DNA of 4,293 bases, taken from IMG/VR virus record IMGVR_UViG_2065487004_000030. One strand, written 5' to 3'. Source of the stretch: a virus. Lineage: Duplodnaviria; Heunggongvirae; Uroviricota; Caudoviricetes. Positions 1,274-4,293 of the stretch are shown here, piece by piece (positions within the stretch are counted from its first letter, which is position 1; each line of letters opens with the position of its first letter). Both the position numbers and the translations under genes were made by a program. The notes below the pieces were generated by a model, which worked only from the letters and a program-made list of their open reading frames with translations, did no database searches and was not told the origin of the DNA.

Positions 1274-2209
1274 ATGGAACCCCTTCGTGAAATAAGAAAT
1301 CGGCTGCTTAACGGCTGGCAATTATCAAAAATGCATACTTTTGAAGTGGCTGCCAGGCATCAGTCCTTCGCCCTGGCGGCAGAGGAATTGTCGCTGAGCC
1401 CCAGTGCGGTAAGTCACCGTATCAATCAGCTGGAAGAAGAATTGGGCATTCAGTTGTTTGTTCGTTCCCATCGCAAAGTGGAATTAACGCACGAGGGGAA
1501 ACGTGTTTATTGGGCGCTAAAATCGTCGCTGGATACCCTGAACCAGGAAATTCTTGATATCAAAAATCAGGAGTTATCGGGAACGTTAACTCTGTATTCC
1601 CGGCCCTCTATCGCCCAATGCTGGTTGGTGCCCGCATTAGGTGACTTTACACGCCGGTATCCGTCTATTTCGCTCACCGTGCTCACTGGTAATGACAACG
1701 TCAATCTGCAACGTGCCGGAATCGATTTGGCGATCTACTTTGATGATGCGCCGTCAGCGCAACTCACTCATCACTTTCTGATGGATGAAGAAATCCTGCC
1801 AGTATGTAGCCCGGAATACGCTCAAAGACATGCTTTAACCAACACGGTAATTAACCTGTGTCACTGTACGTTGCTCCATGACAGACAGGCATGGAGCAAC
1901 GACTCCGGTACGGATGAATGGCATAGTTGGGCGCAACATTATGCGGTTAATTTGCCGACATCTTCTGGAATTGGCTTTGATCGTTCTGATTTAGCTGTTA
2001 TTGCCGCGATGAATCATATTGGGGTGGCGATGGGAAGAAAACGCCTGGTACAAAAAAGGCTTGCCAGTGGTGAGCTCGTCGCGCCGTTTGGCGATATGAC
2101 GGTGAAATGCCATCAGCATTATTACATCACCACATTACCGGGCAGGCAGTGGCCAAAAATTGAAGCGTTTATTATCTGGCTAAGAGAACAGGTAAAAACC
2201 ACTTCATAA
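1274..2209 (+). CDS. dsdC: LysR-type transcriptional regulator DsdC (D-serine-responsive activator of dsdXA), 311 aa
   Basis: ATG at 1274 preceded by GAGGTG at 1265-1270; stop TAA at 2207-2209. The ORF track begins two codons earlier at GTG 1268 (MIM...), but ATG 1274 gives MEPLREIRNRLLNGWQLSKMHTFEVAARHQSFALAAEELSLSPSAVSHRINQLEEELGIQLFVR..., with an N-terminal helix-turn-helix typical of LysR regulators and a length of 311 aa. I recognise the sequence as E. coli DsdC. Its divergent arrangement with dsdX matches the known dsd locus. Confidence 0.9.
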   Translation: MEPLREIRNRLLNGWQLSKMHTFEVAARHQSFALAAEELSLSPSAVSHRINQLEEELGIQLFVRSHRKVELTHEGKRVYWALKSSLDTLNQEILDIKNQELSGTLTLYSRPSIAQCWLVPALGDFTRRYPSISLTVLTGNDNVNLQRAGIDLAIYFDDAPSAQLTHHFLMDEEILPVCSPEYAQRHALTNTVINLCHCTLLHDRQAWSNDSGTDEWHSWAQHYAVNLPTSSGIGFDRSDLAVIAAMNHIGVAMGRKRLVQKRLASGELVAPFGDMTVKCHQHYYITTLPGRQWPKIEAFIIWLREQVKTTS

Positions 2210-2304
2210 TGAATAAAACCACGAGTTCCTGGTGTGCCTTATTCGGCCTGCTAGTTCGAATTTAATTTACGGTTTTTATGTGGTTTTAGGGATAAACACA
2301 AGGA

Positions 2305-2319
2305 TGGTGTCCCCTGCAG
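2305..2319 (-). repeat. attR core: 15-nt duplicate of the 3' end of tRNA-Arg (argW), ending in ACCA
   Basis: Plus strand TGGTGTCCCCTGCAG is the reverse complement of CTGCAGGGGACACCA (T-stem 3' strand + acceptor 3' strand + discriminator + CCA). There is no upstream tRNA body, so this is a fragment and not a gene. Its position between the chromosomal dsdC and the phage gene torI fits an att core. Confidence 0.75.
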
Positions 2320-2343
2320 ACATCTACTTGAAGCAGCAGGGGA
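2310..2343. repeat. Inverted repeat TCCCCTGC ... GCAGGGGA (8-bp arms, 18-bp spacer) overlapping the attR core
   Basis: Arms at 2310-2317 (tcccctgc) and 2336-2343 (gcagggga) are exact reverse complements. The left arm lies inside the tRNA-derived core and the right arm is on the phage side. Confidence 0.5.
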
Positions 2344-2376
2344 TTGATTGGAATGGTGTTTTTTAGATGTGAGAAA

Positions 2377-2398
2377 TATTTTACCCGCTATTTTACCC
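2377..2398. repeat. Tandem direct repeat, 2 x TATTTTACCC (12-bp period), at the 3' end of torI
   Basis: Copies at 2377-2386 and 2389-2398 are identical 10-mers separated by GC. The second copy overlaps the torI stop codon (2393-2395) and last sense codon; the first lies just 3' of the stop. Confidence 0.5.
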
Positions 2399-2593
2399 AT
2401 TGGCGCGGCTTAAGAGCTTATTTTTGAATTCACAATGGTCACGATATAACCATCTTGCTCGCCCGTGGATAACTTTGGCTTTTGGCAGGTCGCCTGACTT
2501 AATCCGGTCATAGATGAAGGTTTTACCAAAGCCAGTATCAGCCATGATGAATTTCAAATCAACCAGTGAATCAGGCTGTAGTTCGTGTTGCAT
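2393..2593 (-). CDS. torI: TorI, prophage excisionase (recombination directionality factor) that also inhibits the TorR response regulator; 66 aa
   Basis: ATG at 2593-2591, stop TAA at 2395-2393, GGAG about 9 nt upstream. Translation MQHELQPDSLVDLKFIMADTGFGKTFIYDRIKSGDLPKAKVIHGRARWLYRDHCEFKNKLLSRANG matches the E. coli TorI sequence as I recall it. Small basic Xis-like protein next to an att core. Confidence 0.9.
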   Translation of the reverse strand: MQHELQPDSLVDLKFIMADTGFGKTFIYDRIKSGDLPKAKVIHGRARWLYRDHCEFKNKLLSRANG

Positions 2594-2612
2594 GAGTGCT
2601 ATCTCCGAATAG

Positions 2613-2628
2613 GGAATCGAACCTGCAA
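2613..2628 (-). other. tRNA T-arm fragment (TTGCAGGTTCGATTCC on minus strand) 19 nt upstream of the torI start; not a functional tRNA
   Basis: Plus strand GGAATCGAACCTGCAA at 2613-2628. On the minus strand it reads TTGCAGGTTCGATTCC, i.e. T-stem 5' strand GCAGG + T-loop TTCGATT + CC, which matches the argW T-arm as I recall it. The flanks do not fold into a cloverleaf: the following bases are CTATT, not the CCTGC needed to close the T-stem. Confidence 0.45.
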
Positions 2629-2693
2629 ATCAGGTAATAAAAATACGCTCTATGACGGCGATGGTAGATCAGGATATTTTAAGAAACTGACAG

Positions 2694-2712
2694 GCCTCAT
2701 CGAGTGTGAGGC
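2694..2712 (-). terminator. Weak hairpin (GCCUCA-7 nt loop-UGAGGC) 13 nt downstream of the yfdT stop; possible partial terminator between yfdT and torI
   Basis: Arms 2694-2699 and 2707-2712 are exact reverse complements. On the minus-strand transcript a UUUCUU run begins about 7 nt after the stem, so this is not a canonical intrinsic terminator. Confidence 0.25.
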
Positions 2713-2724
2713 TGTATGGCTCTA

Positions 2725-3030
2725 TTATTTCACCTCTTGTTGTGACATTGTTGAAAAATGGATACCAGCTCGTTGCTGCCAGATGATCCAACCGAGAGTC
2801 ATATCCCATGCCATGTATTCGTTATCGCCGTTTTTTGCTCTCCGACGATCTACTAAGTCACCGAAACGCTTTTCCATGAATAATTCATAGGCTTCGCGTT
2901 CATCTGGCTCTACTTCCAGAGATACGAGTGCGATTTCATAAGCACGGCGCTCAATATCGTCTCGAACCTCTAGGCTGCTGATTCGTTCTTTGATTTCTTT
3001 AATCAGTTCTTTATTGGTAAATGTGGTCAT
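2725..3030 (-). CDS. yfdT: Prophage protein YfdT, 101 aa, function unknown
   Basis: ATG at 3030-3028, stop TAA at 2727-2725. Its start overlaps the yfdS stop (minus strand reads TAATG). Translation MTTFTNKELIKEIKERISSLEVRDDIERRAYEIALVSLEV... is charged and predicted helical. Position and length match K-12 yfdT as I recall it. Confidence 0.8.
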   Translation of the reverse strand: MTTFTNKELIKEIKERISSLEVRDDIERRAYEIALVSLEVEPDEREAYELFMEKRFGDLVDRRRAKNGDNEYMAWDMTLGWIIWQQRAGIHFSTMSQQEVK

Positions 3031-3392
3031 TATGCTCCAGCCTCCGGTGCTTTTGGCATTACTGCCCAGTGAGTGATATTGACGTTTTCAAGGTCCCCAA
3101 CCTGAAATGTCCACTGCCATTCTCCGGTTTCTTTTTGTCCCCAGGTGTACCAGAGAGAACGCCAGCCAATCAGCCAGCCTTCTCCGTTAGCATCAAATAA
3201 CAGAACACTTTCATTTGCTGGTGGCAGTTCAGCTGACACTGGTATTATTTTGTTTTCCAGTGCCGCACATTTAGCTTCAAGCGCGTCGAATTTACGTACC
3301 AGGTACTCAGCATTTGTTTCGTTCACTTTCAGATCTCGCGGTACACATTTCCCGCGAAGAAACCCTTCCATTTCGAAAACATTCATGCGCAT
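3030..3392 (-). CDS. yfdS: Prophage protein YfdS, 120 aa, function unknown
   Basis: ATG at 3392-3390, stop TAA at 3032-3030. The 5' end overlaps the yfdR 3' end by 10 nt (minus strand ATGCGCATGA). Translation MRMNVFEMEGFLRGKCVPRDLKVNETNAEYLVRKFDALEAKCAALENKI... has a Trp-rich C-terminal half (GWLIGWRSLWYTWGQKETGEWQWTF). Confidence 0.8.
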   Translation of the reverse strand: MRMNVFEMEGFLRGKCVPRDLKVNETNAEYLVRKFDALEAKCAALENKIIPVSAELPPANESVLLFDANGEGWLIGWRSLWYTWGQKETGEWQWTFQVGDLENVNITHWAVMPKAPEAGA

Positions 3393-3919
3393 TTGCGTAA
3401 CTCCGATAAATCGTTAAAACGTTCCATAAACATCCCGTAGGCATGACCCGGTGCCAGTGGAATCACGTTGAACATCTCTGTTGCCGGGATGCCTTCCAGT
3501 ACAGGCCAGAAAGAGCCATCATCAAGCCCGAGATCACGGCGTTCGGTTGCCAGCATAATGAGATCGGCATATTTCACTGGCGTGCTCATAACAGGAGGTA
3601 ACCCGTATTTCTCACGGATTACTGCATCTATTTTTTCTTCCATCCGTTTATAGTCAGGAAGAAGGCGTTTCAGTGGTGCGGGGATGTCCTGGCAATACGC
3701 TTCTGTTGCATCATGCATTAATGCTTCAAAAGCAAATTCCTGCGGCACCAGCTGGCTGCAAAGCACCGCATGTTGGGCGACACTGTAGAAGTGAGAAAGA
3801 TGACCGGCAAAGCGGCAGATATTTGAAAGGGAAACCGCGATATCGTTAATCACGATGTCGTCTTTATTTATCTTGTCATAATAAAAATGCTTCCCGGAAA
3901 AAGTTTTAATAAATGACAT
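3383..3919 (-). CDS. yfdR: HD-domain metal-dependent phosphohydrolase YfdR (5'-deoxynucleotidase-like), 178 aa
   Basis: I place the start at ATG 3919-3917, which has GGAGAA 6 nt upstream. The ORF track extends it 9 codons to GTG 3946-3944. Stop TGA at 3385-3383. Translation MSFIKTFSGKHFYYDKINKDDIVINDIAVSLSNICRFAGHLSHFYSVAQHAV...ALMHDATEAY...RRDLGLDDGS shows the H..HD..D metal-binding pattern of HD phosphohydrolases. The 178-aa length matches K-12 YfdR as I recall it. Confidence 0.85.
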   Translation of the reverse strand: MSFIKTFSGKHFYYDKINKDDIVINDIAVSLSNICRFAGHLSHFYSVAQHAVLCSQLVPQEFAFEALMHDATEAYCQDIPAPLKRLLPDYKRMEEKIDAVIREKYGLPPVMSTPVKYADLIMLATERRDLGLDDGSFWPVLEGIPATEMFNVIPLAPGHAYGMFMERFNDLSELRKCA

Positions 3920-4013
3920 TTTGTTCTCCACGTATATGCGCTGCACCGCGCTGAGTTTGGGTAAAAGGAAGCCCTCACCATCCGGTGATTATTGAGTTAA
4001 TTACGTTTCCATA

Positions 4014-4034
4014 AATGCCCCCGCAGGGGCATTT
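4014..4034 (-). terminator. Perfect 9-bp stem / 3-nt loop hairpin (AAATGCCCC-GCA-GGGGCATTT) 13 nt downstream of the yfdQ stop; candidate attenuator or partial terminator between yfdQ and yfdR
   Basis: Arms 4014-4022 and 4026-4034 are exact reverse complements with a GC-rich core. On the minus-strand transcript the stem is followed by AUUUAUGG, only a short U run, so termination would be partial at best. Confidence 0.3.
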
Positions 4035-4046
4035 GCAGTAATGAAA

Positions 4047-4293
4047 TCAGGCGGTGAAAGTACCAATAAAGGTTTCTACTTTGCTGTCTTTGAATTTCTC
4101 AACAAGCAGATCACGAAATTCGTTAGCCATATCTTCCTGCACCGCTTCCAGCTGAATAATGCGCAGAACCAGTACAGGACGATCGCCAGTGATAATGCTG
4201 AGGCGTAATTTAAACGGACGTTCTTTCAGACCTTCAAACGGAACGCATTTAAATTCAAATGCCACTGGCATAATGTCTTTGGTCTTCGCTTCG
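4047..4293 (-). CDS. yfdQ: Prophage protein YfdQ (DUF2303-like), partial: C-terminal ~82 codons present, N-terminus beyond the window end
   Basis: Stop TGA at 4049-4047. The reading frame stays open upstream to 4293 (..[81 protein letters not shown]), so the Met at 4271 in the ORF track is internal. The assignment to yfdQ rests on gene order and the recalled C-terminus. Confidence 0.7.

Follow-up and report, generated by a model that had tools for sequence, protein, structure and literature searches.

The window, as the whole 4,293-nucleotide stretch of DNA analysed here is called, carries a locus found in Escherichia coli K-12. Positions 1900-2700 are 100% identical, over their full length, to K-12 derivatives in a megablast search of 5,426 complete E. 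coli genomes, and K-12-derived strains also match 2320-4293 at 100% identity. Gene positions follow RefSeq for this identical K-12 locus, in which each coordinate equals the window position plus 11101.

On the left, the 5′ part of dsdX, for a D-serine transporter, occupies 1-1056 on the minus strand and is truncated by the window end. Next is dsdC (1274-2209, plus strand), for a LysR-type regulator with Pfam HTH_1 and LysR_substrate domains; this is the final chromosomal gene before the junction considered below. The remaining genes all lie on the minus strand: torI (2393-2593), for the recombination directionality factor (RDF), or excisionase, of prophage KplE1 (RDF role, PMC3509656); the prophage gene yfdT (2725-3030), whose DNA is 95-98% identical in phages SfV, SfIV and PhiR29; a gene for a yfdS-type phage protein (3030-3392; DUF551); yfdR (3383-3919), a prophage gene for an HD-domain 5′-deoxynucleotidase; and the 3′ part of yfdQ (4047-4293), truncated by the right end of the window. 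The yfdS-type and yfdR assignments draw on Pfam and phage DNA matches as well as on RefSeq. The TorI sequence is identical to PDB entry 1Z4H, "Tor inhibition protein."

RefSeq annotation gives the order of the K-12 locus as dsdC, attR, torI, about 10.2 kb of prophage, intS, argW and yfdC. Within the window torI adjoins attR, and the intS-argW pair lies outside it, at the opposite end of the K-12 prophage.

Base composition gives no hint of this arrangement. Neither GC content (about 0.41-0.49 on either side) nor skew shows a step at the junction, so composition alone would have missed the boundary. Scans of 2000-2800 found no promoter-like site and a single terminator-like site at 2765-2782, which is outside the region of interest and equals the chance rate.

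A tRNA 3′ end without its tRNA

The region between dsdC and torI contains one exact copy of CTGCAGGGGACACCA, on the minus strand at 2305-2319, and the window holds no other. This sequence is the final 15 nucleotides of the 75-nucleotide tRNA-Arg(CCU) gene argW, comprising four nucleotides of the T-stem, the 7-nucleotide 3′ acceptor strand, the discriminator A, and CCA. In the window ARAGORN predicts 0 tRNA genes: only these 15 tRNA nucleotides are there, and the cloverleaf body with its anticodon arm is absent. Rfam likewise returns nothing for the window at E≤1. By contrast, ARAGORN does call argW in a strain with an empty site and, in K-12, at the prophage end away from dsdC.

The original prediction, made from the letters alone, had noted this tRNA 3′-end copy, reverse-complemented, without a tRNA body and placed between dsdC and an excisionase gene, and had read it as the attR of a prophage integrated in a tRNA gene. 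The copy, its missing body and its position between dsdC and torI are all as described, and its match to the 3′ end of a host tRNA, offered as a check, is to argW.

A sequence this short, at a site of flat composition, might match a tRNA end fortuitously and mark no boundary at all. However, only about 0.01 matches are expected by chance in the window even if two mismatches are allowed; an identical copy lies within argW at the other end of the prophage; and, as described below, similarity to empty sites stops, and similarity to free phages starts, exactly at the block containing the 15-mer. Comparison of attR, attB, attL and attP rules out a chance match, whose probability is vanishingly small.

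The empty site

Strain JNQH498 carries the locus without an insertion, in the order dsdC, a 95-nucleotide spacer, argW (minus strand, CCU anticodon), yfdC. Its sequence is 100% identical to the window from 1900 to 2319, and its intact argW begins at the equivalent of 2305. The match then fails: attR equals attB through 2319 and diverges at 2320. The K-12 attL, beside intS and argW, behaves reciprocally; it equals attB from the equivalent of 2304 onward and has just 2304-2319 in common with the window. Aligning the window, JNQH498 and K-12 thus leaves ATGGTGTCCCCTGCAG (2304-2319) as all that attR, attB and attL have in common.

This block is the att core: 16 nucleotides that read CTGCAGGGGACACCAT on the minus strand, being the last 15 nucleotides of argW plus one, and the sole block common to attR, attB, attL and the attP of phage HK620. 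The second copy lies in argW at K-12 locus coordinates 23620-23635, a distance of 10,215 bp from the first. These values agree with the published description of KplE1 as a 10.2-kb element integrated in argW and bordered by a duplicated 16-nucleotide core of this very sequence (PMC2951348). A tRNA-derived att copy of 15 nucleotides had been proposed. The derivation from argW stands; the length does not, because the A at 2304 is also common to attL, attB and attP. Strand exchange must occur within this 16-nucleotide core.

The core also limits how finely host and phage DNA can be told apart. Since 2304-2319 is common to both, it is assignable to neither, and unambiguous phage DNA starts at 2320. 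The suggestion that everything to the right of about 2305 was acquired holds in substance, for that side is phage DNA (HK620, Sf6 and Kapi1 first; SfV, SfIV and Stx2c farther on), with its start moved to 2320.

The left side of the core is the B arm (2210-2303), the chromosomal spacer that separates dsdC from the argW 3′ end at empty sites. It is 100% identical in JNQH498 and absent from free phage genomes. Its distribution was examined with a 410-bp empty-site query (dsdC 3′ end, argW, yfdC upstream region) run on the 5,426 complete genomes. The argW/yfdC half is present in every one (5,426/5,426). An uninterrupted dsdC-argW-yfdC arrangement occurs in 912. Among the matches listed, most interrupted attB matches start at query position 195 or 196, equivalent to window 2304/2305. 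The window's own 1900-2700 segment, used as a megablast query, finds the dsdC-attR-torI junction in 858 of the genomes and tells the same story from both directions: many genomes match it only over 1900-2319, with "tRNA-Arg" annotated beneath the end of the match, and others match only from 2302-2305 rightward, across torI. The proposed check, that intact argW should directly abut 2210-2304 in prophage-free strains, is thereby borne out in JNQH498 and across the uninterrupted genomes.

Several genomes carry other arrangements at this locus. In E. coli AR_0086 (locus 3001-6424), the dsdC-spacer-core junction is the same but a different element follows, akin to a P4-like satellite and coding for an HTH regulator, a P2-family major capsid protein and an Icd-like protein. 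Elements of more than one kind thus appear to use the argW core. In E. coli O145:H28 RM13514 (3695-5134), a complete argW adjoins the dsdC spacer, and similarity to attB stops precisely at the 5′ end of the tRNA. About 200 bp past that end begin a gene for another tyrosine integrase and further prophage genes; two places in the record match the query. The opposite flank of argW seems to serve a prophage of a second type. In E. coli THO-008 (4296-8296), the match with the window ends at 2195, within the dsdC 3′ end, so that DsdC is four codons longer; ipuB/ipuA invertases and a phase-variable adhesin gene, upaE, replace the spacer and argW. This last arrangement exemplifies the variability of the argW-dsdCXA region.

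Such variability bears on what "native" means here. Conceivably dsdCXA is itself an island acquired at argW, with 2210-2303 a part of that island and not of the ancestral chromosome. The region has been called hypervariable (Moritz and Welch 2006, as cited in PMC8787464), and the THO-008 similarity gives way at 2195 to an ipuA/ipuB/upaE island. Yet the spacer contains no phage att arm and is absent from free phages, and the 912 uninterrupted genomes have dsdC, spacer, argW and yfdC together without an insertion. An island origin is thus improbable, and it would in any case not conflict with the assignment of the junction as attR. The original prediction took 2210-2304 to be the native sequence downstream of argW; it is so at empty sites and in that sense only, other islands occupying the position in some strains.

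The phage attachment site

The complementary comparison is with free phages. Window 2210-2620 was compared with 50,697 phage records. HK620, Sf6, Kapi1, HK633 and about a dozen others match at 96-99% identity, and every free-phage match begins at window 2304 or 2305 (query 95 or 96). Only phiv205-1 matches over the full length, and its record contains host flank together with an annotated attR.

HK620 is especially informative. In its record the feature "attP core" covers precisely the 16 bases that correspond to 2304-2319, and an attP repeat_region covers those corresponding to 2377-2399. The window's attR equals HK620 attP base for base from 2304 to at least 2420, and the phage-derived side of the K-12 attL is the opposite arm of the same attP. 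The alignments with attB, attL and HK620 attP therefore resolve attR into three parts, namely bacterial arm, core and P arm, as expected from recombination between attP and attB.

Could the 15-mer instead be the decayed remnant of a second complete argW, a pseudo-tRNA left by deletion without any site-specific recombination? The RM13514 locus, with its complete argW beside dsdC and a different prophage on the 5′ side of the tRNA, indicates that tandem or duplicated arrangements exist at argW. But the DNA past the 16 nucleotides is the HK620/Sf6 attP P arm, base for base, and not degraded tRNA; beyond 2320 the alignment resembles neither the T-loop nor the anticodon arm of argW above chance. 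Free phages, moreover, carry the same 16 nucleotides without a tRNA body, and published excision restores attB (PMC2951348). Decay is accordingly extremely improbable.

Almost certainly, window 2210-2416 is the attR of KplE1 (CPS-53), a defective prophage of E. coli K-12 that derives from integration of an HK620/Sf6-like phage at argW. No observation contradicts this assignment. The comparison of attB, attL and attP agrees with the predicted attR of a tRNA-integrated prophage, and the name attR matches that used in the KplE1 literature (PMC2951348).

Similarity within KplE1 changes partner a short distance to the right. The att-torI module, from 2304 to about 2620-2643, is HK620/Sf6/Kapi1-like; a mosaic joint lies at 2643-2672; and the yfdT-yfdQ block, about 2663-4293, is like that of SfV, SfIV, PhiR29 and Stx2c phages (95-98% identity over 2663-4293). 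The records of these latter phages annotate their own excisionase gene beside the yfdT-yfdQ-like block. This rest of the window is mobile DNA, with as many as six occurrences in a single genome, and is sometimes plasmid-borne.

The P arm

The P arm (2320-2416) is phage-derived, unrelated to attB, and overlaps the last 24 bp of torI. Its right limit is that of the published in vitro attR substrate: primers attR-XbaI and attR-IHF2 (PMC3509656) map to 2282-2306 and 2397-2416, and the 135-bp excision substrate to 2282-2416. In one respect, then, the original prediction fell short. It ended attR at 2392, just before torI, whereas the functional site reaches about 2416, 24 bp into the gene, and takes in two candidate arm-type repeats at 2377-2398.

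These are direct repeats of TATTTTACCC (minus strand GGGTAAAATA) at 2377-2386 and 2389-2398, 12 bp apart, coinciding with the HK620 repeat_region. The right-hand copy overlaps the stop codon of torI. The motif GGGTAAAA is found in three copies in the window (0.17 expected), and half of its copies in the 26.8-kb K-12 locus, 5 of 10, sit in the two att arms. The P′ arm-type sites described previously all have TAAA in common (PMC2951348). From sequence, we infer that the TATTTTACCC repeats are candidate IntS arm-type sites of the P arm. For IHF, a consensus scan of the window gave 7 matches where 6.4 are expected, and the P-arm match at 2337-2349 (minus strand) is not callable; with matches at the chance rate, no IHF site is placeable from sequence.

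An open reading frame for 49 residues (2251-2400, minus strand) starts 8 nucleotides inside torI and crosses the core. Its N-terminal part is phage-derived and corresponds to HK620 "hkaB" and Sf6 gene 17, an open reading frame spanning attP; integration swaps the C-terminus of this hkaB-like frame for chromosomal sequence. Pfam finds no match for the 49-residue product. Its GKIAGKI repeat mirrors the DNA repeats of the arm, so the frame is probably not a gene, but a non-coding hybrid of hkaB.

The core and P arm also share a perfect 8-bp inverted repeat, TCCCCTGC (2310-2317) and GCAGGGGA (2336-2343), separated by an 18-nucleotide spacer, with one arm in each. On the minus strand the TCCCCTGC/GCAGGGGA hairpin, which is present in the predicted fold, is followed by CACCA. 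RNA folding of both strands gave z = -1.26 (a 100-nucleotide minus-strand fold with the hairpin) and -0.39, no support for structured RNA relative to shuffled sequences. One might speculate that the torI-sense hairpin plus CACCA, resembling a tRNA acceptor minihelix, processes the torI transcript or stabilizes its 3′ end, and that in the free phage it would act instead on an xis-attP-int transcript, the fate of the RNA being set by the state of integration. This idea is a very long shot.

Integration and excision

The course of events is almost certainly as follows. An ancestral temperate phage of the HK620/Sf6 type carried an attP whose 16-nucleotide core was identical to the argW 3′ end. Its tyrosine integrase, IntS, exchanged strands inside this core, rebuilding argW intact at attL, beside intS, and leaving the body-less copy of the tRNA 3′ end at attR, between the dsdC spacer on one side and the P arm with torI on the other. 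For excision, IntS acts on the core and on arm-type sites (the candidate repeats in the P arm), IHF bends the DNA, and TorI bound in attL sets the direction; recombination of attL with attR then regenerates attP and attB.

The present comparisons locate the junction exactly, define the core, show attR to be a hybrid and give its distribution among genomes; the protein requirements and the excision activity come from the literature. KplE1 is excisable in vivo, restoring attB (PMC2951348). Excision has been reconstituted in vitro with purified IntS, TorI and IHF acting on linear attL and the 135-bp attR (PMC3509656, PMC2951348). The recombination module (attL, attR, intS and torI) is conserved in HK620, Sf6 and CUS-3 (PMC2951348).

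Relation to known systems

The KplE1 attR at this junction is already known, well studied and ordinary. Panis, Mejean and Ansaldi reportedly worked on the KplE1/CPS-53 attR in 2007, and papers by Panis in J Biol Chem (2007) and Virology (2010) are said to have mapped the protein-binding sites of attR. The K-12 site described in PMC2951348 and PMC3509656 is the very same one: core, neighbours (dsdC and torI) and substrate all match, with no difference.

Phages HK620, Sf6 and Kapi1, P22-like podoviruses that integrate in argW, have the same 16-nucleotide core, the same P arm and the same two TATTTTACCC repeats. Their RDF gene (hkaC, gene 18 and xis, respectively) aligns with torI at 96-99% DNA identity, and the other arm of their attP is that of the K-12 attL. 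The difference is one of state. Free phages have both arms joined, in the order xis-attP-int, whereas the window has its P arm fused to chromosomal DNA. Kapi1 integrates between yfdC and dsdC, with xis beside dsdC, at a locus described as hypervariable (PMC8787464). Its identity with the host was counted as 17 bp because one more A matches in that host (PMC8787464); in K-12, attR and attL carry different bases at 2303, which makes the core 16 bp.

The organization also recalls the attR of phage lambda (POB′) and, more broadly, the heterobivalent att sites of lambda-type tyrosine integrases: a short core of identical sequence links a bacterial arm to a phage arm with integrase arm-type repeats (candidates, in the window), and excision requires an RDF and IHF (PMC2951348). 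Three differences stand out. The core lies here in the 3′ end of a tRNA gene, but in lambda between gal and bio. The KplE1-type attP is flanked by xis and int, which integration moves apart, unlike in lambda. Finally, KplE1 has its RDF sites in the int-proximal attL, overlapping the promoter of intS; in lambda, Xis binds attR (PMC2951348, PMC3509656).

Implications

These comparisons contain no new biology: the KplE1 attR, its 16-nucleotide core, TorI and IntS were characterized genetically, biochemically and structurally between 2004 and 2012. They do provide a base-exact annotation, with chromosome through 2303, common core at 2304-2319, and prophage from 2320. Moreover, they indicate that a reading of sequence alone can place the end of a prophage correctly from the 3′ end of a tRNA that has lost its body.
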